A DNA stretch of 64,000 bases, from positions 9,000 to 72,999 of IMG/VR virus record IMGVR_UViG_3300017744_000003. One strand, 5' to 3'. Positions 3,486-60,831 of this stretch are shown one piece after another. Source of the stretch: a virus. The notes beneath the pieces were generated by a model, which was not told the origin of the DNA, searched no databases, and worked only from the letters and a program-made list of their open reading frames with translations. Position 1 is the first letter of the stretch, and each line of letters opens with the position of its first letter. Position numbers and translations under genes: made by a program.

Positions 3486-4313
3486 ATGATTACTGACAAC
3501 AATAAAGTTATTCTCCCTATCGGTGTCGAAGTTGATGGGGTACGTTATCGAGAAGTTACTTTGGACGAGATGACAGGTATCGACGAAGAAAACTTGTCTT
3601 CTCGCAAAGTGCGTAACAATGGGGCAAAGGCAATCACGCTTCTCCTAAGACGGTGTATACAGTCTATTACAGGTGTTATAGAAACAAAGCGTGACCCTTT
3701 GTCCCTAATAGATGATCGTATTGTTCGCAATATGTTTGTAGCAGACCGAGACTTCTTGGTCTTATGTATTAGAGCACTTAGTGGGAACCCAGAGGTGTTA
3801 TTAACACCTGAATGTCCTGCATGTGGTTCTAGTTGTGAAAGAATGATAGATGTTCGTGAGCTTGATGTTTATGAATGGGAAGATGACGTTCCTGTTGAGT
3901 TAAAGATTGAGTTACCCCGTGGCTTCTATAGCAAGACCACAAGTAAATATCACAAGGATGTAGTTTGGCAGTTTCCTAAAGGCTTGGGACAAGAGCGTAT
4001 TGCGTCTATGCCTCAAAATGAGGCGGGGACAAATCTTATCGCTTTAGGTCTTAAAGAAGTAGAAGGTCTTGAGACTTTACCTATGCCGGATGACGTTCGT
4101 AAGTTAAGCGTCCGAGATCGAAATGCTTTTGCTCAAGCTATCTTAGAGAACGCAGTTGGCGTAGATAATAAGGTAGACATTGACTGTCCTAATTGTGGCA
4201 ACGAATTTGAGGTAGAGGTCAACACCGTGGGTTTTTCCAATTTGGGTCAACAACAGACCCAAAAGGAATCAAAGCCTGGGATGAGTGGGCGCAAACTTCG
4301 GAAAAGGCGTTAA
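3486..4313 (+). CDS. Tail assembly chaperone (G form) with two CxxC motifs
   Basis: Lies between tube and tape measure. EMTGIDEE, DRDFLVLCIR, CPAC and CPNC. Confidence 0.8.
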   Translation: MITDNNKVILPIGVEVDGVRYREVTLDEMTGIDEENLSSRKVRNNGAKAITLLLRRCIQSITGVIETKRDPLSLIDDRIVRNMFVADRDFLVLCIRALSGNPEVLLTPECPACGSSCERMIDVRELDVYEWEDDVPVELKIELPRGFYSKTTSKYHKDVVWQFPKGLGQERIASMPQNEAGTNLIALGLKEVEGLETLPMPDDVRKLSVRDRNAFAQAILENAVGVDNKVDIDCPNCGNEFEVEVNTVGFSNLGQQQTQKESKPGMSGRKLRKRR

Positions 4314-8689: not shown

Positions 8690-11077
8690 ATGGCAGGGCC
8701 TAATCTAAGGAAACCGGCTGAAAAGCGTCAAGAGGGGGTAGACAGAGATGCTCTGTCAAAAGATAACGTTGCGATCGTCCAAGAACCTAGAGAGTTACTA
8801 AGTAACAGTACAGCAAATCCTAAATATACTCCTCGTAAAGTGAGTGCTCAAGTCCAAGAACTTGGAGATAACTCGGTTGACTTACCCTTTCACTCACTTA
8901 TAGGTCACACAGAACTGACTCCCTACTTTTGGATAAGACCAAAGAAAAGACCTATCTCACCCGAGCTTGACTTTGTTAACCCTCTAAGAAAGAACATTAA
9001 GTCGATAAACTTGACAAATACCTACGGTAAGTTCCCTACGGTAGAATTTGAAATGTATATACCGGAGTTTCGACAAATAAGTACTACAATGGTGGTGGGT
9101 GACACTATAAGAAAGCGTGACCCTGGAAAGATTATAGATTACTTCAAGTTGGGTGAATCTTTTAGTGTAAAGTGGGGTTATGTAAGTAACCATACTGAAT
9201 GGTCTAGTTTTAGGGTGATTGATCGACAGGTTAAATTTGAAAACGGCACTGCTCTCTTGACGGTCAAAGGTCGAATAGGATCTCGTTTAAGTGCTACGAT
9301 TACTTCAGACGTATTCTCTGCTTCTTATGGAAAGACCACTTTTGATCAGATAGCAGGTCTTGTTGACATGAAAGTTAACTATAGAGGACTGCTTGACGAA
9401 GAGTATGAACAACTTCTTAAGCAAGAGAATACTGTTTTGTTTTCAGGAGCAAATACACTAGCAATTGGCGCATACTTAGAAGCTACAAAGGCAGACGTTG
9501 AGTTATATTTAGATCCCATAGACAATGAAATGAGGCTTACAACACCCTTTAAATATGAGATGATTAAGAGAGGTACTAAGCCTTACAAGATGACCTATGG
9601 TTACCCTACGTCTAATATTGCTTCAATAGATGTAGAGACCAAATACCCTAAGAAAAAGGGGACGGGGATACGGAAATCTAAACCTTTAAGTCAGAAGCCT
9701 AGTGGAACTGCTATTATAAACCGTAAGGCGGGTACTGCCCAATATGTTCAAGCAGGTGTTATTAAATACACGCTTAATGGCGAAGAGAAGCGGTTTGAAG
9801 TGGGTAACCTTACAGACTATAATAAAAAATCTTTAAACGATAATGGAGACTTTGACTCACTAGTGGGGCTAAAGTCTTTAGAAAATGGACGGTTCCCCCC
9901 TAGTGATGGTTATAAAGTTTATTTTGTAGAACAATCTACCAACAGAGACTACGGAGACTATCTGATTGTAAGAAACATAAGTCTTCCCACAGAGTTAACT
10001 TTAGAGCGACGAAGTGTAACTAATACAGAATATCTATTCTTACTTTCACAAAGTGAACAAAATAAACTATTTGTTTCGACAAATAACGTAATAAATGATG
10101 ACGGTCTTCTTGAGGTTACTGTTTATAAACGTAATGTAGACTCTAGTGTAAATATTCAAGAAGACGTAAAACCAGAAACAGATGAAATGGTCTTTGAAAC
10201 TACCATCATTGAAGCGACACCTAAAGGGGGCGATACAGAAGAAGGTGATGAGTTAGAGGACAAGTGGGTGAGTGTGGCGGGTAAACAAACGTACATTGAC
10301 GCTCAACACTACGCATCTAATAAGAATAATACAGGTTTACTTACTAGTAGTAAAGTTACCGCCTTTGAAGAACAAGTAGCCGAACTTAAAAAAGAAGCCC
10401 AAGCTAAGGGAGAGGACTTTCGAGTAAGTAAAAAATCGCTAGGCAGTACACTCCTCTATCAACTAGAGGAGAAGACTCAAGTTAAAGTGCGGACTGATCC
10501 TAGTAATGCAAAAGAAGATGATGACGGGGGCAAGGGTTCTTCGGAAAGTGCAAGTCCTGACGCTAGTACACCTGCACCTCCTTTTAAGCCAATAGCTCAA
10601 CAAAGTGGTGCTCCTCGTAGAGCCCGTAGGCTTAAAACAACTAAGGTTCGTATTCGATTAAAAGCCGGAGACTGGACTATGCGTGTTGGTCGGATTATTG
10701 AGATAGTGGATATTCACAAGAGTCTTAATGGTTTCTACTATGTGTTTTCAGAAGAGCACAATATAGGTACGGATGGTTTTCATACTGAAATAGAATGTCG
10801 TAAAGCATCTAAAAAGGCTGTAAACAGTTACGGTAAAACGATTAGGCGAAAAGATTCTAAGAAGAAAGAAAAGGGAGGGACTCGTAGCGCAAAGTCAGGA
10901 GAGAGTGTAGACGTAAAGAATGCTACTGATAAAACGATAGTTATCGATGTTGATCTACGTGAAAAGAATAGGTTAGATGCCCAAAATAAGGCTAAAGAAA
11001 AGCAAAAAAAATTAGAAATACAAAAAGCTAATAACAATACTATTGAACGCTTTTCAAACATACCGGAGGCAACATGA
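8690..11077 (+). CDS. Baseplate hub protein (gp27 / P2 gpD-like) with a large insertion
   Basis: VKWGY near the N-terminus; C-terminal GRIIEIV..LNGFYYV..EEHNIGTDGFHTEIEC. Lies between the LysM and spike genes. Confidence 0.7.
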   Translation: MAGPNLRKPAEKRQEGVDRDALSKDNVAIVQEPRELLSNSTANPKYTPRKVSAQVQELGDNSVDLPFHSLIGHTELTPYFWIRPKKRPISPELDFVNPLRKNIKSINLTNTYGKFPTVEFEMYIPEFRQISTTMVVGDTIRKRDPGKIIDYFKLGESFSVKWGYVSNHTEWSSFRVIDRQVKFENGTALLTVKGRIGSRLSATITSDVFSASYGKTTFDQIAGLVDMKVNYRGLLDEEYEQLLKQENTVLFSGANTLAIGAYLEATKADVELYLDPIDNEMRLTTPFKYEMIKRGTKPYKMTYGYPTSNIASIDVETKYPKKKGTGIRKSKPLSQKPSGTAIINRKAGTAQYVQAGVIKYTLNGEEKRFEVGNLTDYNKKSLNDNGDFDSLVGLKSLENGRFPPSDGYKVYFVEQSTNRDYGDYLIVRNISLPTELTLERRSVTNTEYLFLLSQSEQNKLFVSTNNVINDDGLLEVTVYKRNVDSSVNIQEDVKPETDEMVFETTIIEATPKGGDTEEGDELEDKWVSVAGKQTYIDAQHYASNKNNTGLLTSSKVTAFEEQVAELKKEAQAKGEDFRVSKKSLGSTLLYQLEEKTQVKVRTDPSNAKEDDDGGKGSSESASPDASTPAPPFKPIAQQSGAPRRARRLKTTKVRIRLKAGDWTMRVGRIIEIVDIHKSLNGFYYVFSEEHNIGTDGFHTEIECRKASKKAVNSYGKTIRRKDSKKKEKGGTRSAKSGESVDVKNATDKTIVIDVDLREKNRLDAQNKAKEKQKKLEIQKANNNTIERFSNIPEAT

Positions 11078-30380: not shown

Positions 30381-30692
30381 ATGAAAGCAATAAAAGCAAA
30401 ATCTAGTAAAAAAGACCCTTTTGACAGCCATAAACGAACAAAAGAGTCTAACTTGCCTTTTGTTAAAGCAAGTAGGACTCTTTACATGAACAAAAGTGCT
30501 TATGCGGTATTAGGTACCGAGGGGTTCAAATATAATGGTGAAAACCAGTTAGACCGTGAATCTGAAGTTAAAGAGGGTGAAGGTTACTTAGATGTAGAAA
30601 CCGTAATTAATGTTCTAATACATGAACTTATGGTAACTAAGTCGGATCTACTTAAACTCAAAAAAGTTGTTGAAAAGTCTGAGGTAGTGTAG
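30381..30692 (+). CDS. Hypothetical protein with a C-terminal coiled coil (possible fibre chaperone)
   Basis: 103 aa after the fibre genes. Confidence 0.5.
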   Translation: MKAIKAKSSKKDPFDSHKRTKESNLPFVKASRTLYMNKSAYAVLGTEGFKYNGENQLDRESEVKEGEGYLDVETVINVLIHELMVTKSDLLKLKKVVEKSEVV

Positions 30693-31054
30693 TGAGCCTG
30701 CATGATTACAAACCTTTGTTTTTTGAGAATAGCCGTGTACCTATTTGGTTAAGCAAAGTAACACCTATAGAGATTAACGCGATCACTTTGTTTTGTTTCG
30801 TATTTTCTAGGGGAGAGATATCCGATCAGACCAAACGACATGAGACTATACACTTCCAGCAGTTCTTAGAGACGGGGGTTATTGGCTTTATTGTCTTGTA
30901 CTACCTGGACTATGCTTATCGTTACTTGAAGTACAGAGACGGTAAGAAGGCTTACCGTATGATCTGCTTTGAACAAGAGGCACACGACAACGATCACCTA
31001 GAAGATTACTTATCTAATCGTAAGCGTTATGCTTGGACAGGGCTGAGACGTTAA
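30692..31054 (+). CDS. Small HExxH zincin-like protein
   Basis: AITLF...RHETIHFQQ...AYRMICFEQEA. Confidence 0.65.
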   Translation: MSLHDYKPLFFENSRVPIWLSKVTPIEINAITLFCFVFSRGEISDQTKRHETIHFQQFLETGVIGFIVLYYLDYAYRYLKYRDGKKAYRMICFEQEAHDNDHLEDYLSNRKRYAWTGLRR

Positions 31055-31128: not shown

Positions 31129-31398
31129 ATGTTGGATAAGATGAGTGACGATGAGTTATTGGCTAGGTCTATCGAATACTCAGCAGCGGGTATTAAGGAT
31201 CGTTTTGAAGAAGACTATCAGGTAGCCTTAGTATCAGCGACTTCTAGTGTTGATTTGGATATGAGTTCTGATAAAGGTTGTATCATTGTTCACATGAAAG
31301 GTGGAGACGCTTTACCTTATCGAAAAGGCGATTGGGTGCAGGTTAGAGAGGCTAAAGGATCTATGTTTTCAGTAGGTGTGTATAAAAAACATCGATAA
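31129..31398 (+). CDS. Hypothetical protein
   Basis: 89 aa with an AGGAG SD. Confidence 0.6.
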   Translation: MLDKMSDDELLARSIEYSAAGIKDRFEEDYQVALVSATSSVDLDMSSDKGCIIVHMKGGDALPYRKGDWVQVREAKGSMFSVGVYKKHR

Positions 31399-53724: not shown

Positions 53725-53910
53725 ATGGTATATGAACAAGCACTAAAGTTCATAAACAAAGAAGTATTTGGCATAACTAAAGATCAGCTTGTTATAAGAG
53801 GTAGGCTAACTGAGGTAAATAAAGACGGTTACGCCATCATAGTTGTTCATAACACAATCCCTGTTAGGGAATATAAGACGCATATAAAATATGTGTTCCC
53901 GCAGAAATGA
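53725..53910 (+). CDS. Small hypothetical protein (possible Sm/SH3-like beta fold)
   Basis: 61 aa; ATGA overlap with the methyltransferase gene. Confidence 0.5.
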   Translation: MVYEQALKFINKEVFGITKDQLVIRGRLTEVNKDGYAIIVVHNTIPVREYKTHIKYVFPQK

Positions 53911-55238
53911 CTAGAAAGAAAATTAATGTGGATACTACCAAAAACCTTACCCATATTTCCCTCTGTGCAGGATACGGGGGGATTGATCTCGGACTTTCAA
54001 GAGCTATCGGAGCAGTTAGAACAGTCTGTTTTGTGGAGATCGAAGCCTTCGTCATCGAAAACTTGGTCGCGAAGATTGAAGCGGGACTGCTCGACACCTC
54101 GCCTATTTTCACAGATCTTAAAGCCTTCCCTTGGGAACTCTATAATGGAAAAGTGGATATCCTCAGTGGAGGGTTCCCTTGCCAACCATTTAGTGCCGCA
54201 GGAAGACGTAAAGGAAGCGAAGATCCTCGACACTTGTGGCCTTACATCACAGACGGAATCAAGCGCCTTGGAAGACCTTCCATTGTTTTCTTTGAAAACG
54301 TCGAGGGAATCATCTCCTCAAAACTCAAGGGAGACGATTGGGCAGATCCGGAAGGAACGTCTGTTCTGCACCATGTCCTTAAAGAGTTGGAACGCTTGGG
54401 TTACAAAGCAACGGCGGGAGTATTCAGTGCGCGTGAAGTTGGCGCGCCACACCAAAGAAAGCGAGTTTTTATTCTTGGTGTCAGAGATGACTTCGGAGAG
54501 TCGGGATTGGAATTTATATCGTCAATGCTCAGAGGTACAGGAACAGATGCGAAATTGGCCTACCCCGCATCAAGAGGCGCAGAACAGTACGCATGGGAGC
54601 CAAGGAGAGTTACAGTGGGCAACGCCGGCACAAGCAGATCACAAACTGTATCACATGAGCATCGAAGCTATGACAGTGAGATTAAATACAAAGAGACAGT
54701 TGGGTCTGCCAGGTCATGTGCATCAAACAGAACAGAAGCGTTGGAGGCGATCAGTTTCGATAGATCGGAAAGGCCCTTGTCCGAAAGCACCGCAAGAACA
54801 AAAGGAAGTAAACTGGGCAACGCCGATGGCGGGGACAAAGGATCACATGGGGTCGAGTTTAGAATATTACCAACGCAGGTCACAAATAGGGAAGCAAGTG
54901 GACTTGAATGGACAGGTGATGTTGGAGAAGGATTGGACCACACCAATCAGCAGGGATTGTTACGAGATTGTGATGAACCACCAAATACCAATCCGAAAAG
55001 ACGGGAAAACGAGGTTAGATACAATGCCCAGGCAGGTACACCACGAAGAGGGTTACAAGGGGAAACTGAACCCACGTTGGGTGGAGACGCTCATGGGGCT
55101 ACCTGTGGGTTGGACTATGCCCAGTTGTCAGATTCCTGTGATAATAGAACAGATGAGTTACGACTGCTTGGAAATGGAGTCGTTCCCGCCACAGCAGAAA
55201 GAGCGTTTAGAACCCTGTGGAGAGCCTTATGCCAATAA
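53907..55238 (+). CDS. C5-cytosine DNA methyltransferase, alpha chain (motifs I-VIII and X, lacking IX)
   Basis: SLCAGYGG (I), GGFPCQPFS (IV), FENV (VI), PHQRKRVF (VIII), LLGNGVVP (X). Confidence 0.92.
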   Translation: MTRKKINVDTTKNLTHISLCAGYGGIDLGLSRAIGAVRTVCFVEIEAFVIENLVAKIEAGLLDTSPIFTDLKAFPWELYNGKVDILSGGFPCQPFSAAGRRKGSEDPRHLWPYITDGIKRLGRPSIVFFENVEGIISSKLKGDDWADPEGTSVLHHVLKELERLGYKATAGVFSAREVGAPHQRKRVFILGVRDDFGESGLEFISSMLRGTGTDAKLAYPASRGAEQYAWEPRRVTVGNAGTSRSQTVSHEHRSYDSEIKYKETVGSARSCASNRTEALEAISFDRSERPLSESTARTKGSKLGNADGGDKGSHGVEFRILPTQVTNREASGLEWTGDVGEGLDHTNQQGLLRDCDEPPNTNPKRRENEVRYNAQAGTPRRGLQGETEPTLGGDAHGATCGLDYAQLSDSCDNRTDELRLLGNGVVPATAERAFRTLWRALCQ

Positions 55239-55536
55239 TCAAGTCAGAGACATAGCGCAGCCAACAGAAGAACCTTGGCCTACGCCTAACGCTAGAGACT
55301 TTAAGGACTCAATAAGTACTGTACCTCCATCTGTTACCGTCACAAGAGGTTATTCTTTAGGGCAGGCCGTCGCTAAAGAAAATATTAAAGATTGGCCTAC
55401 ACCTTCTGCTTCACAAAGGGGTGACACACTAGAGACGTATGAACGAAGATCTAGGAAACGAGAGGAACAAGGGTTAATGCCGTTTGCCCCCGTGTTACAA
55501 GTAGCCGTTGAAGCGTCAGAGAAGAGTAAGAAATGA
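53926..55536 (+). CDS. Overlapping +1-frame methyltransferase partner (motif IX-like plus six W-x-T-P modules); true start uncertain
   Basis: 536 open codons containing LNPRWVETLMGLPVGWT and WPTP/WATP/WTTP repeats. Its stop is ATGA-coupled to the next gene. Confidence 0.8.
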   Translation: MWILPKTLPIFPSVQDTGGLISDFQELSEQLEQSVLWRSKPSSSKTWSRRLKRDCSTPRLFSQILKPSLGNSIMEKWISSVEGSLANHLVPQEDVKEAKILDTCGLTSQTESSALEDLPLFSLKTSRESSPQNSRETIGQIRKERLFCTMSLKSWNAWVTKQRREYSVRVKLARHTKESEFLFLVSEMTSESRDWNLYRQCSEVQEQMRNWPTPHQEAQNSTHGSQGELQWATPAQADHKLYHMSIEAMTVRLNTKRQLGLPGHVHQTEQKRWRRSVSIDRKGPCPKAPQEQKEVNWATPMAGTKDHMGSSLEYYQRRSQIGKQVDLNGQVMLEKDWTTPISRDCYEIVMNHQIPIRKDGKTRLDTMPRQVHHEEGYKGKLNPRWVETLMGLPVGWTMPSCQIPVIIEQMSYDCLEMESFPPQQKERLEPCGEPYANNQVRDIAQPTEEPWPTPNARDFKDSISTVPPSVTVTRGYSLGQAVAKENIKDWPTPSASQRGDTLETYERRSRKREEQGLMPFAPVLQVAVEASEKSKK

Positions 55537-56455: not shown

Positions 56456-57040
56456 TTAGTTGTTGAATACTTTTAATAGTGTTTTAACTGCGTAACTATA
56501 CCAGTTATCCATAGAATCTTCGTTTAATGGAGGAGGTAGCTCAAAGACCTTTACACCTTTAGCTTTCATTTCATCTAACCACGTAATCATTGACTTGCTT
56601 GTATCTCTTAGTCCGTCTTCTTCTATGTAAGCACACACCTCTTCTTTGTCTACAAGTCTCTTGTGTGCCTCTTGCGGGAAACAGTGACAGTAAATTATAC
56701 AGTCAGGTAGCTTGTGTAACTCTGAAAGGGAAGTGGTCATATCCTCAAACAGAGCTAGTTCATCTTTAGACGTTTGTGAATCATCTATAAGCGCTCTAGC
56801 AAAGGCATAAGAAGACCACACACTATGTTCGTAAAAGAATACTTTATCTTCTTGATCGTCTTGTTCTTTCCAAACCCTCATGTTTTCGGTGAGTGCATAC
56901 GTCCAACCTTTAAGGCCGTTAAAAGGTGGTGGCGGAATACATATTTTAATACGGTCAAAGGGGACTTCGCCTCTTTCTGCAAGTTGCTCTACAAGGTAGT
57001 TCAACGGAGAGCCCCAAATTCCTTCTAAAACAATTCTCAT
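56456..57040 (-). CDS. Deoxynucleoside-kinase-fold protein with a degenerate P-loop
   Basis: IVLEGIWGSP (no GKS/T), YEHSVWSS..FA, LPDCIIY......AHKRL. Confidence 0.7.
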   Translation of the reverse strand: MRIVLEGIWGSPLNYLVEQLAERGEVPFDRIKICIPPPPFNGLKGWTYALTENMRVWKEQDDQEDKVFFYEHSVWSSYAFARALIDDSQTSKDELALFEDMTTSLSELHKLPDCIIYCHCFPQEAHKRLVDKEEVCAYIEEDGLRDTSKSMITWLDEMKAKGVKVFELPPPLNEDSMDNWYSYAVKTLLKVFNN

Positions 57041-57106
57041 GTTAAGTCCTTACGCATAGGTGTCTGTTTGCTGTCTCTTTAGTATAATATATATTGGAGG
57101 TGACAT

Positions 57107-57352
57107 ATGAATGACCTAAGCCACTTAAAAGATAAAAAGTATGTAACAGATACTCTAAGAGACTTCACGGAAGATATGGAAGACTTAGATGAAACTATTT
57201 GTGCATTATGTGGATTATCTCCGGATATGTGCCCTTGTTATGAACACCCAAAACACTCTTGTGAAATAGAGGGGTGTCATTGTTCTATATTATGCTCTTG
57301 TTGTCGCGTTAGTATATGTAGCTGTGGTTACTTAGATGTTCAAAAAAGTTGA
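57107..57352 (+). CDS. Cys-rich small protein (12 Cys in about 42 residues)
   Basis: GGAGGTG SD, TATAAT at 57083, acidic N-terminus and CxC/CC clusters. Confidence 0.7.
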   Translation: MNDLSHLKDKKYVTDTLRDFTEDMEDLDETICALCGLSPDMCPCYEHPKHSCEIEGCHCSILCSCCRVSICSCGYLDVQKS

Positions 57353-57358
57353 GTCAGT

Positions 57359-58186
57359 ATGGAGTTTAATGAACGAACCTTAGCTATTGTTTTGCTTGAC
57401 CTCATAGGTAGCACTGCTTTTGTTCAAAAGGTAGGTGCTAAAAGGGCAGCAGAATGGTTACAGTATCACGACAGGCTGACTAGAAGTCTACTGTATAAGT
57501 TTAATGGTAGAGAGATAGACCGTTCTGACGGTTTTATGCTTTCTTTTGACCGACTAATAGACGCTGTTAACTTTTCCGTTCATTATCAAATATCAATACC
57601 AAGGAAGACCAAGTTAAACACTCGTATCGGGGTGCATTGGGCAAACGTAGTTGAAGTTATACAAGATGAACTCTATGTGGGCGTGGGAGCTAAACGCATA
57701 GAGTTAGAAGGTATTGCTAAGAACATTACAGCACGTACCATGAGTATTTGTTTACCTGGTCAAGTTCTTTTAACAAAAGAAGCAGTGAAAGTAGCCCAGG
57801 GTAGAGCAAATACTTATACACCACAAGGTACTCGTTACGCATGTGTAGGTCTCTACCGGTTTAAAGGCGTAAAAGATCTTCAAGAGATATATGCTGTAGG
57901 GACAACCTTAAGTGTTTTACAGCCTCCACCTAGTTCCGATAAAGTAAAAAGAGTCGGAGGTCCTAAGAAGATAAAGTCTAGGGCAAGGGACCGTAAACTT
58001 ATAGAATGGCTTTGGTGGCTATCAGTAAGGCTATGCTTTATAATAATCTTTTGGCTGTTAGCAGAGTCTTGGTCTGCTATTAGCAACCCCCAGGTGCGTA
58101 GAATGTGGGGCCATGATTGGTTATTTTGGTGGACTGACTATGTTAATCTTTTATTTGAACCCTTTAGAAAAGTGCTGAACTTATGA
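57359..58186 (+). CDS. Class III nucleotidyl cyclase with a C-terminal TM segment
   Basis: IVLLDLIGSTAF, GREIDRSDGFM, RIGVHW, EG..KNITAR, PGQVLLT, GLYRFKGV; hydrophobic WLWWLSVRLCFIIIFWLL. Confidence 0.9.
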   Translation: MEFNERTLAIVLLDLIGSTAFVQKVGAKRAAEWLQYHDRLTRSLLYKFNGREIDRSDGFMLSFDRLIDAVNFSVHYQISIPRKTKLNTRIGVHWANVVEVIQDELYVGVGAKRIELEGIAKNITARTMSICLPGQVLLTKEAVKVAQGRANTYTPQGTRYACVGLYRFKGVKDLQEIYAVGTTLSVLQPPPSSDKVKRVGGPKKIKSRARDRKLIEWLWWLSVRLCFIIIFWLLAESWSAISNPQVRRMWGHDWLFWWTDYVNLLFEPFRKVLNL

Positions 58187-58641
58187 TAGATCCCGATAAC
58201 GAGATCAAAGCTAAAAGAGGATGGTACTTTTCTATCTTCTTTTTATTCCTTATCGTATGCTTAGTTGTGTTTCTGAGTTATGTAGAGATCGTCAAAGAAA
58301 ACCGAGACGTACTCGTAGGTATCTTAGGTGTTCTAACTGGCAGCATAAGCTCAATGATGGCTATCGCTTCTGGTCGTGACCCTTCAGAAGTAGAGAAACT
58401 TCAAGATAAACTATCATCTGCTAACGCAGATAGAGAAGCGCTAATAGCGAGACTCAGAGACGCGCAAATACAGCTACAGATTAAGAACGAACAGATAAGT
58501 TCTTTACAGTCTGCCATGATAGATAAACTATCTTTATTTGCCGGAGAGTCCATAGCTTCACCTAAAAAGACAGACGACGTTGAACTAAACCCAGACGTAG
58601 AAGCATGGTTGCCACAAGTGGATAGAGATCAAAAACTGTAA
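58183..58641 (+). CDS. 2-TM membrane protein with a C-terminal coiled coil
   Basis: Two hydrophobic helices separated by KENRD, then heptads. ATGA overlap with the cyclase gene. Confidence 0.8.
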   Translation: MIDPDNEIKAKRGWYFSIFFLFLIVCLVVFLSYVEIVKENRDVLVGILGVLTGSISSMMAIASGRDPSEVEKLQDKLSSANADREALIARLRDAQIQLQIKNEQISSLQSAMIDKLSLFAGESIASPKKTDDVELNPDVEAWLPQVDRDQKL

Positions 58642-58802: not shown

Positions 58803-60146
58803 TTAAAAGTCTAAGTCTTTAAACAAAGGTAACACTTCAAGATCCACTTCTTCGTTCTTGGTTTTTTCTATATCTGCTATGGCTGACCAATGGTCTATAC
58901 GAACTTTAGCGATCTCTGCGTATTCCTCTTCACGCTCAATGCCGAACCCTTCTACGTCTTCAAGCGCACAGGCGCACAGAGTAGTACCTGACCCTAGAAA
59001 CGGTTCAAGGACTGTACCCCCTGGGGGCGTGACCATACGAACTAGATATCTCATAAGGTCTATAGGTTTAACAGTGGGGTGTACATTAGCTCTTTTAGAA
59101 TCCGTCTTAGATTCAAGCCCTGCTTCACGCTCTTTCTTGTTCGCTTTAGTCGTATAGAAGAAACGACTTGCGCCCCCTGTATCTCCATAGCCTTCACTTC
59201 CCTTGGCTTCCCATTTACCAATTGTGGGTTTGCCGGCAACTCCCCATGCTCTCGACTTACTGCCTGCGGTTCCACTCTTTTGAACACCGCTCTGTTTATC
59301 TAGTTCTTGGGCTGACTCTGCATCGAGCATTATATTAGCAGGCCATCTGCCCTTCTTCCAATCATCTTTTACAGATCCAATTCTTGCAGACTTATTATGA
59401 AAACCCCGTTGTGCTTCAGTGACCTTGTTTGCTTGAGGGGTCACACCTGTATTTTCACCTTTTTGAAGAGGTATACGAGTTGCATCTATATTAATACCAC
59501 CAACACCCCATTTAAGAACATTATCTGCCACTGTTCCTTCGGGTGGTTTCCTTATTAAAATGATGGGTTCATAAGCGGGTTTTAATGCAGTACCATAACC
59601 TACCCATTGTTTTGATCTATCATCTCTTGATATGTATTCACCGACGGGGTTTGATTTGAGCTTGTTCTTCTCTTCTGTATCACTCGCTTGATAACGACTA
59701 GCTGTTGGAATAGCTTTACCTCTATTTGAGTGACCTATCTTCTTATCGATGCCTAGAGCTACGTTGTGACTTTTTGGAAAACCACTTCCATATATCCACA
59801 TGATAGTATCTCGTATATCGAAACCGGCTAACCGCAGCGATATACTCATGAGGTCTTGAGTACGTGTCCCTGCAAAGACCACACCATAAGCACCAGGCTT
59901 CATGACTCGATAGACTTCTCTCCACAGGTCGGGCTGTGGTACAAAAGAATCCCATTCCTTATTCATGAAGCCTTTTTTGTTCTTAGGTGTCCAAGTATCT
60001 CCTGTTGACCATGCTGTTAAACATTCTGCCATCATCTGGGGTGTCACTTGACTAAGACCATAGGGTGGATCAGTGACAAGTGCGTCAAAAGAGTTGTCCT
60101 CTACTGCCTTAAGGACTTCAAGACTATCTCCATTTAGTATCTTCAT
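58803..60146 (-). CDS. N4-cytosine/N6-adenine DNA methyltransferase (beta class)
   Basis: VTDPPY, WIYGSGFPK, ALKPAYEPI, GRWPAN, HPTVKPI.LM, EPFLGSGTT. Confidence 0.95.
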   Translation of the reverse strand: MKILNGDSLEVLKAVEDNSFDALVTDPPYGLSQVTPQMMAECLTAWSTGDTWTPKNKKGFMNKEWDSFVPQPDLWREVYRVMKPGAYGVVFAGTRTQDLMSISLRLAGFDIRDTIMWIYGSGFPKSHNVALGIDKKIGHSNRGKAIPTASRYQASDTEEKNKLKSNPVGEYISRDDRSKQWVGYGTALKPAYEPIILIRKPPEGTVADNVLKWGVGGINIDATRIPLQKGENTGVTPQANKVTEAQRGFHNKSARIGSVKDDWKKGRWPANIMLDAESAQELDKQSGVQKSGTAGSKSRAWGVAGKPTIGKWEAKGSEGYGDTGGASRFFYTTKANKKEREAGLESKTDSKRANVHPTVKPIDLMRYLVRMVTPPGGTVLEPFLGSGTTLCACALEDVEGFGIEREEEYAEIAKVRIDHWSAIADIEKTKNEEVDLEVLPLFKDLDF

Positions 60147-60174: not shown

Positions 60175-60831
60175 TTATAGTATGCGTCGGGCGAGAGGAC
60201 ACATAGCTTCCACTTTATCCATAAGTTTCTCAGCCCAATATTCCCTATCAAGCTCTAATACTTTAGGAGACTGTACACAGAGTACCTTTACTCCCTTAGA
60301 CTCTAGCAAACTTAACCATGTTTGGTACAGGTCGTCAATAATCCAATAGTGATCTTTGGGCAGAGGTGAATGACAGGGCAGACATTCAAAGTAAACAACC
60401 AAATCCGGCAAGTCTAGTTGAGACACCGCATACACCCAACGCATCTTAAACTCATTATACTCATAAGGCGTTAGGCCAAACTCAGAACCAAACACCCACT
60501 GGGCAAAAACAAACAAAGACCATACTGAGCGCTCATAGTATATATAACCCACATCCTCTTCCCAATCACCTCCACCTTCCCAATCTACTAACCTCTCAGA
60601 TAACTCCGTTAGCCAATCGTCAAGACGTAAACTGTCTCCGTCAAGCGCACGGCTAAAACCACTACCACTTGTCCACACTGTATCACCCCGCGCATAACGA
60701 CCTTCAACAGACCACATAAACGCACCAAGACCACTCCCAGGTATACCCTCTAAGGATATTCGGGCGAAAGGGCGCATAAGACCAAAACTCATAAATAAAA
60801 ACCCCCTACCATATATAAACTCATACCCCAT
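60175..60831 (-). CDS. Second deoxynucleoside-kinase-fold protein with a degenerate P-loop (start uncertain)
   Basis: ISLEGIPGSGLG, YYERSVWS.FVFA, LPDLVVY, GVKV; motifs shared with 56456..57040. Confidence 0.65.
   Translation of the reverse strand: MGYEFIYGRGFLFMSFGLMRPFARISLEGIPGSGLGAFMWSVEGRYARGDTVWTSGSGFSRALDGDSLRLDDWLTELSERLVDWEGGGDWEEDVGYIYYERSVWSLFVFAQWVFGSEFGLTPYEYNEFKMRWVYAVSQLDLPDLVVYFECLPCHSPLPKDHYWIIDDLYQTWLSLLESKGVKVLCVQSPKVLELDREYWAEKLMDKVEAMCPLARRIL

Follow-up and report, generated by a model that had tools for sequence, protein, structure and literature searches.

Most of what is known about cyclic-nucleotide signalling in phage biology comes from two host systems, CBASS and Pycsar, and from phage enzymes and sponges that destroy or sequester the signal. 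The stretch of DNA analysed here (hereafter the window; 64,000 nt, positions 9,000 to 72,999 of the IMG/VR virus record IMGVR_UViG_3300017744_000003) raises the question of why a phage should itself own a nucleotidyl cyclase, and with which partner that enzyme works. A first-pass annotation of the window had singled out three consecutive genes, specifying a cysteine-rich peptide, an atypical membrane cyclase and a protein with two transmembrane (TM) helices and a coiled coil (the 2-TM protein), and had read them as a phage-borne signalling module. We find that the conserved unit consists of two of these genes, the cyclase and the 2-TM gene, with the peptide a recurrent but dispensable add-on, and that the 2-TM protein most simply derives from a phage membrane-protein family normally found in lysis cassettes, one branch of which has become coupled to a cyclase. 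That the module is phage-borne was borne out, since the record, a linear virus contig of 72,999 bp estimated to be 75% complete, encodes a tail sheath, tape measure, baseplate wedge and tail fibres together with DNA polymerase I, a DnaB-like helicase, ribonucleotide reductase (RNR) and PhoH; the carrier is an uncultivated marine myovirus. None of the three module proteins has a tblastn match in 50,697 deposited phage records, to which the DNA polymerase of the carrier shows at most 34% identity, and there is therefore no close cultured relative and no host assignment. The whole module does recur on one contig of a seawater run from another study, with 75 differences over 1,749 bases, and in one run guessed to be RNA-Seq two contigs of 151 nt match a portion of the 2-TM gene without a difference, too weak a signal to call expression.

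Which of the three genes travel together can be read from their viral relatives. In IMG/VR, 87 stretches encode a relative of the cyclase, and 80 loci were kept and examined. In 76 of these 80 the cyclase is followed immediately by the 2-TM gene, and in the remaining four (L008, L059, L079 and L080) the locus ends no more than 27 nt past the cyclase match. The peptide gene, by comparison, stands upstream of the cyclase in 14 loci only, its place elsewhere being taken by the terminase large subunit gene (TerL), a methylase, a dCMP deaminase or an unrelated small open reading frame (ORF). On a cyclase tree of 61 distinct domains, drawn from 81 sequences after identical domains were merged and those under 180 aa dropped, the distribution of the peptide takes three changes and falls in three separate clades, a number of changes as low as none of 500 label shuffles produced. 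The three-gene linkage that had been proposed thus stands for the cyclase and its 2-TM partner; the peptide, being upstream in so few loci and in three separate clades, is optional.

The pair, which we read as a mobile cassette, occurs in different phage backbones and at different positions. In 55 of the 80 loci TerL is found no more than 1.5 kb upstream of it, and 41 have a portal-like gene of 475 aa downstream; ThyX and dCMP deaminase genes are nearby in 31 and 18, respectively, and the cassette is found too in myovirus-type records of 73-85 kb and in contigs of 102-147 kb. Contigs of ~35 kb are its commonest carriers, and their TerL (e.g. L020, 2629-3996) has no tblastn match at E ≤ 1e-5 in the deposited phage records; these ~35 kb carriers appear to be a deeply uncultivated lineage.

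The upstream member of the pair has the class III nucleotidyl cyclase fold with its set of catalytic residues intact. It belongs to a family of at least 675 proteins (E ≤ 1e-3), nearly all of ~275 aa. Its AlphaFold2 (AF2) model (pLDDT 88.6) matched 188 PDB chains at E ≤ 0.001 in a Foldseek search and, among the matches listed, 33 of 33 are class III cyclases. The best fold match is the cyclase homology domain (CHD) of Rv1900c/LipJ (1ybt/1ybu; E ~2e-13, target-normalised TM-score 0.86-0.91, root-mean-square deviation ~2 Å, ~22% identity), followed by Ma1120 and then by other adenylyl and guanylyl cyclases; the Rv1900c CHD (1ybt, E 3.6e-8) and Ma1120 are also the closest solved structures by sequence. 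In alignments to 1ybt and 4wp8, D14 and D57 fall on the two metal Asp residues and KN122ITAR126 on the Asn/Arg motif, and we take D14 and D57 to bind metal and N122 and R126 to serve the transition state, as established for the class III family. These four residues and the block G50-R-E-I-D-R-S-D-G-F59 are invariant in 22 cyclases, as are the motifs LLDLIGS, IDRSDGF, IELEG and KNITAR; 62 columns are invariant in this set, and the pairwise identities within the cyclase and partner sets go down to 49-56%. The early reading that the enzyme keeps both metal Asp residues and the N...R motif is thereby confirmed. Since all catalytic residues are kept, the enzyme most likely makes a 3',5'-cyclic nucleotide in infection, the base of which is not readable from sequence.

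It is in the pocket for this base that the enzyme departs from its solved relatives. Compared with Rv1900c and Ma1120, one residue is missing from the segment that precedes the second metal Asp; D54 or a gap stands at the base-selecting Lys/Asn position (D54-R55 lie there), and the second selecting position holds E115 rather than Asp, each of these features being invariant in the family. Replacement of the usual K-x-x-G-D segment by the shorter IDRSD, with a second specificity region reading IELEG, had been noticed from the letters of the window, and the alignments to both structures agree. Neither the canonical Lys/Asp pair that selects ATP nor the Glu/Cys pair that selects GTP is present in the window cyclase. 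In fold, catalytic-domain size, metal Asp residues and Asn/Arg motif the enzyme resembles the Rv1900c CHD and Ma1120 (4wp3 and related entries); besides the altered pocket, it differs from them in ending in a TM anchor, where the known proteins have a lipase domain or are soluble. This C-terminal part begins with a basic linker (LQPP...KVKR.GGPKK) that has a net charge of +8 and invariant L187, P189, P190, K195 and G201, and continues into a TM helix (residues ~215-243; 58001-58087) before closing with 32 residues of hydrophobic or amphipathic character; the AF2 model has helices at 214-242, 244-250 and 258-274. By the positive-inside rule, this arrangement implies a cytoplasmic cyclase domain tethered to the inner membrane by its C-terminus.

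The cellular relatives of the enzyme are built differently. When 185,579 species genomes were scanned, the single protein gave no cyclase match, and the family alignment gave 53 loci with 30-50% identity over residues ~9-199, most of them in Rubrivivax and further Burkholderiales, Xanthomonadaceae and Sumerlaeota. The complete bacterial ORFs among them measure 606-1457 aa, and the others are long or cut by the end of a contig; the short membrane-anchored form was not found in these genomes. One annotated bacterial example has the cyclase domain, matching the N-terminal part of TIGR04510 only, followed by AfsR-like and TPR regions. The bacterial relatives carry the motif EIDR[ST]DGF, in part by construction, as this was one of the two search patterns. 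In NCBIfam, the window cyclase matches TIGR04510 ('putative peptide modification system cyclase') with E 1.4e-42 and 146.2 bits over profile positions 7-204 of 814, against a cut-off of 400 bits for the full-length family, and LipJ with E 8.5e-13. Given the long complete bacterial forms with their AfsR-like and TPR regions, the phage enzyme is the catalytic domain of a TIGR04510-like clade in which the STAND/TPR tail has been replaced by a membrane anchor, and is not a member of TIGR04510. At 275 aa it is far shorter than the bacterial cyclase-STAND-TPR proteins, and these have neither a 2-TM homologue (best E 0.045) nor a peptide homologue (best E 1.4) nearby in any of the 53 loci. The likeness to TIGR04510-type cyclases that the first-pass annotation had noted accordingly holds for the cyclase domain and fails for the surrounding peptide-modification context.

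The partner has TM helices at about residues 15-34 (58225-58284) and 44-63 (58312-58371), separated by a 9-residue loop, and a long helix at 67-121 (58381-58545); the corresponding elements of its AF2 model (pLDDT 83.5) are a helical hairpin (4-33 and 41-62) and one long helix (67-121). We infer an N-in/C-in topology with a cytoplasmic coiled coil. Conservation is strong, with 44 invariant columns in 24 sequences, and the invariant motifs comprise NRD in the short loop, TGSISSM in TM2, G-x-DP-x-E after TM2 and RLRD-x-x-IQ in the long helix. With regard to known families, phrog_9990, whose function is not named, matches 20 of 28 family members, a protein atlas returned only viral hypothetical clusters, PADLOC gave nothing meaningful, and a comparison of the model with viral structures produced no fold match at E ≤ 0.001 and one unnamed match at E 0.019. 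A profile search of 1.84 billion representatives yielded 123 clusters (41 at E ≤ 1e-10), nearly all of them stand-alone proteins of 45-205 aa, with no fused sensor domain.

A pointer to the origin of the partner comes from a distant branch of this family, which has the architecture and signature in common with it and is homologous over its full length (hhalign probability 99.7%, E 9e-27, 113 columns). Among 80 viral loci of the distant branch none encodes a cyclase, and 41 have a Peptidase_M15_3 or Amidase_2 gene within ±4 kb, both families having been confirmed by Pfam; an M15 gene on the same strand lies no more than 400 nt away in 21 loci, and an amidase gene in 11. The partner itself is small and has two TM helices and a charged C-terminus, as judged from hydropathy, charge and the AF2 model, which are the features of a class II holin. 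We regard it as holin-like on account of its size, its topology and the endolysin context of the distant branch.

From these observations we put forward, tentatively and at somewhat less than an even chance, that the membrane-tethered cyclase and the holin-family protein together control membrane permeabilisation or its timing. The two proteins would act jointly at the membrane, as is suggested by their strict linkage, by translational coupling (the stop codon of the cyclase and the start codon of the 2-TM gene share an ATGA overlap, and in the window phage the second gene would be translated in dependence on the first) and by the unusually strong conservation of both; permeabilisation is proposed as the output because of the ancestry of the partner. 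The product of the cyclase, or the cyclase itself, could then set when the 2-TM protein permeabilises the membrane, or, in the other direction, the 2-TM protein could report the state of the membrane to the cyclase, and the effect might be to time lysis or to exclude competing phages. A more explicit version is a second-messenger-controlled holin, in which a cyclic nucleotide, possibly neither cAMP nor cGMP, gates permeabilisation as a lysis clock or superinfection-exclusion switch, and in which the peptide, as a zinc-cluster mini-protein, adds redox or metal input in some lineages; we consider that version doubtful. A cyclase followed by a small membrane protein is a known kind of arrangement, and what is new here is the phage as owner, a partner of holin ancestry and an unexplored base pocket. 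The phage itself owns a conserved and widespread cyclase (at least 675 protein clusters) that is locked to a holin-family membrane protein. If joint control of permeabilisation is correct, the moment at which the host membrane is breached would be set by a second messenger of the phage's own, a further level of regulation for lysis or exclusion, and the clade common to phages and bacterial cyclase-STAND-TPR proteins would hold a base pocket yet to be explored.

Several observations weigh against joint control of permeabilisation. Pfam finds no cyclic nucleoside monophosphate (cNMP)-binding domain in the window 2-TM protein or in 27 relatives, in agreement with the first inspection of its sequence, and the predicted structure contains nothing beyond a helical hairpin and a single long helix. 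The endolysin context is confined to the distant branch, as genes of the Peptidase_M15_3 and Amidase_2 families are lacking within ±4 kb in all 80 cyclase-linked loci. In carriers G001 (a complete genome), G003 and G004 the candidate endolysin lies ~20-36 kb from the cassette, with no second copy of the 2-TM family beside it, and an ordinary lysis role is therefore not supported by position. Intermediate relatives that keep the RLRD motif have no cyclase within ±4 kb, and the family of the partner thus works without a cyclase. No named holin family matches the 2-TM set, in which one of 28 members matches a PHROG labelled 'hol-like' and one of 28 a PHROG labelled 'endolysin', and the label 'holin-like' would come from the gene context of distant homologues alone. 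Like class II holins and SLATT 2-TM effector domains, the 2-TM protein is small, carries two TM helices ahead of a charged C-terminal helix in the cytoplasm, and probably has an N-in/C-in topology; compared with class II holins, the gene in the carriers sits beside a cyclase and far from the endolysin, and the protein is more conserved (the 44 invariant columns) than would be expected of a holin. The window cyclase, finally, scores 20.8 bits against PF00211, under the Pfam cut-off of 21.9, and many of its close homologues carry a precomputed match to that family. A complex prediction for cyclase and 2-TM protein scored 0.00; having been run without controls, it counts neither for nor against binding.

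Among other explanations, the chief rival is host take-over, in which an ordinary adenylyl cyclase, carried as an auxiliary metabolic gene, raises cAMP in the infected cell and reprogrammes CRP-type regulation, the 2-TM protein serving only to anchor, activate or gate the enzyme. We judge it unlikely. The closest solved structures, the Rv1900c CHD and Ma1120, are adenylyl cyclases, and the cNMP-binding family PF00027 is found in none of five carrier records, one of them a complete genome, so that any canonical receptor would be that of the host. The cassette often sits among genes of nucleotide metabolism and DNA modification, as the ThyX and dCMP deaminase counts illustrate, and in the window it sits between methylases and deoxynucleoside-kinase-like genes. 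According to a published account (PMC9599517), adenylate cyclase occurs as an accessory gene in the curli (type VIII secretion system, T8SS) regions of HTVC023P-type and myovirus pelagiphages, where it follows CsgF, CsgG, CsgA and FecR genes. The cyclase described there is likewise an accessory gene of abundant marine phages; the curli context is, however, absent here, with CsgG in none of six carrier records (the record of the window and five large carriers). A purely metabolic role would also leave the strict pairing with a holin-family protein (the 76 of 80 loci) unexplained, and the Lys-Asp pair that selects ATP is missing, with a deletion at the Lys and an invariant Glu at the Asp position.

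The non-canonical base-selecting residues would fit a phage-carried abortive or exclusion system of the Pycsar or CBASS kind. Here a competing phage would be detected by the cyclase, and the cyclic nucleotide made in response, possibly a pyrimidine one, would switch on the 2-TM protein to disrupt the membrane. Pycsar consists of a pyrimidine cyclase and a cNMP-activated TM or TIR effector, and the likeness lies in the two-gene logic, a class III-fold cyclase followed by a small membrane protein, an order that signalling defence operons also have; variable accessory positions in several phage backbones are a further point in favour. The most recurrent Pfam match of the 2-TM family is SLATT_fungal, at E ≤ 0.05 in nine of 28 members (best 2.3e-4). 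Yet every one of these matches is below the curated cut-off, the window protein scoring 18.1 bits against 26.5, and no bacterial SLATT family appears for the 2-TM set among the matches listed (25 Pfam families). Of the PADLOC models, among them those for Pycsar and CBASS, none matches the cyclase at E ≤ 1. The partner, besides having no cNMP-binding domain, lacks SAVED or any other sensor domain. The cassette, unlike Pycsar, is phage-carried, and its short cyclase is absent from the cellular species genomes, which would be unusual for defence. The carriers, moreover, look lytic, so that a suicide module would need special pleading. We therefore find a system of this kind improbable, and the kinship with Pycsar that had been suggested is not supported, in view of the lack of a PADLOC cyclase match and of a cNMP-binding domain in the partner or in the five carriers. 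By membership, the cassette is not Pycsar, CBASS or a system for ribosomally synthesized and post-translationally modified peptides (RiPPs). A literature search turned up no account of such a pair, a phage cyclase with a holin-like or SLATT-like protein, and no paper on TIGR04510.

A RiPP-like system of the TIGR04510 type, in which the cysteine-rich protein is the precursor and the cyclase homologue modifies or regulates it, can be set aside as very improbable: it draws on the 146-bit TIGR04510 match (E 1.4e-42) and on the position of the cysteine-rich ORF directly upstream of the cyclase in the window phage, and it runs against the peptide's presence in only 14 of 80 loci, a match confined to the N-terminal part of the profile and far under its cut-off, the lack of any peptide homologue near the 53 bacterial relatives with STAND/TPR tails, and peptide forms of 55 aa that have lost the N-terminal 'leader' and kept the Cys core, the opposite of what leader-dependent RiPPs do. 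A TIGR04510 cyclase would be expected beside genes for a modified-peptide precursor and for its maturation. No maturase-type gene adjoins the window cyclase, and the peptide has neither the conserved leader nor the adjacent modifying enzyme of a RiPP precursor.

The peptide itself has 81 aa, with 12 Cys, four His and an acidic N-terminal half, the part that is missing from the 55-aa forms. Its core reads C-x2-C ... H-x2-H-x-C ... C-x-C ... C-x-C-C ... C-x-C, and ten Cys and two His are invariant in the 14 peptide sequences. The family is rare (six clusters in a word-indexed search of 5.8 billion proteins, plus the 14 viral loci), has no Pfam, NCBIfam or PADLOC match, and drew only weak zinc-ribbon-type leads, at 0.77-0.78, from the protein atlas. 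As the N-terminal half can be absent with the Cys core kept, a small metal-binding domain fits better than a leader-core RiPP precursor, and the peptide is probably a small zinc-binding accessory regulator in some lineages. At position 57343, two nucleotides of the window are absent from the 96%-identical seawater contig, which puts the final few codons out of frame, and the extreme C-terminus is therefore not conserved even among close relatives. A different small Cys-containing protein is encoded just upstream of the cassette in several peptide-less loci (L048 and L049, 3716-3970; L072, 3677-3913; L077-L079, ~3725-3926); it has a lipoprotein-like N-terminus (e.g. ...LLASCDD, ...LLCSCSS) and is unrelated to the peptide by tblastn. 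The upstream ORF with seven Cys in L054 was considered as a divergent copy of the peptide and rejected, with an hhalign probability of 0.6%.

The layout of the module in the window is given in Table 1. As had been described, the three ORFs share one strand and both neighbours lie on the other, which the ORF list confirms. The TATAAT hexamer and the Shine-Dalgarno sequence attributed to the module are both there; a promoter scan, however, called no + strand sigma-70 site with both hexamers ahead of the peptide, and promoter-like sites in the module region numbered four against 4.5 expected, so that the TATAAT by itself is not above chance. The strong downstream hairpin is likewise present (-31.2 kcal/mol, z -7.49; none of 200 shuffles as good), with no T-run on the + strand and no call from a terminator scan, and is probably a bidirectional terminator. 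As neither scan called a site, the regulatory reading of the module rests on the Shine-Dalgarno sequence, the ATGA overlap and the hairpin.

Table 1. Features of the module and its immediate surroundings, in window coordinates
Feature	Position	Strand	Basis or remark
TATAAT hexamer	57083-57088	+	read from sequence, before the peptide ATG
Shine-Dalgarno sequence GGAGGTG	57096-57102	+	read from sequence, before the peptide ATG
Cys-rich small protein	57107-57352	+	ORF, 81 aa
Cyclase ORF	57359-58186	+	ORF, 275 aa
Class III nucleotidyl cyclase catalytic domain	57359-57913	+	residues 1 to ~185
Cyclase C-terminal part (basic linker, TM helix, tail)	57914-58186	+	hydropathy, charge, AF2
2-TM coiled-coil protein, holin-family-like	58183-58641	+	ORF, 152 aa
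Perfect 16-bp hairpin with 10-nt loop	58663-58704	strand-neutral	between the 2-TM gene and the N6/N4 DNA methylase gene
Deoxynucleoside-kinase-like gene, upstream neighbour	56456-57040	-	ORF, Pfam dNK
N6/N4 DNA methylase, downstream neighbour, convergent with the 2-TM gene	58803-60146	-	ORF

A search of the window record for endolysins of PF08291, PF01510, PF00959 and PF13539 found none, which is uninformative in a record that is ~75% complete. In the complete carrier genome G001, a 309-aa Amidase_2 protein (L218, 1114-2043), a candidate endolysin, is encoded between homologues of the window ORFs 30692-31054 and 31129-31398; in the window no amidase gene stands between the two ORFs, which are separated by just 75 nt. 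The first of them, the homologue of which adjoins the amidase gene in G001, specifies a 120-aa protein with hydrophobic stretches and an HETIH (HExxH) motif that matches phrog_15610 'protease' (E 9e-26). It was considered as an endolysin and ruled out, being an HExxH protein unrelated to the M15 endolysin.

Two further observations concern the surroundings of the cassette. The upstream deoxynucleoside-kinase-like gene has a paralogue at 60175-60831, on the same (-) strand (28% identity, E 9e-10), and the two stand on either side of a block made up of the cyclase cassette and the N6/N4 methylase; only the upstream copy reaches Pfam dNK. Further away, the stretch 53907-55536 carries a pair of long overlapping ORFs in different frames, of which one specifies a 443-aa C5 DNA methylase (PF00145, E 1e-35) and the other, offset by +1, a 536-aa protein with no Pfam match. 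Both frames align at the same offset in eight other viral loci, the +1 frame over up to 541 aa (L073) and 477 aa (L041), and the region may thus contain an overprinted gene inside a phage methylase.

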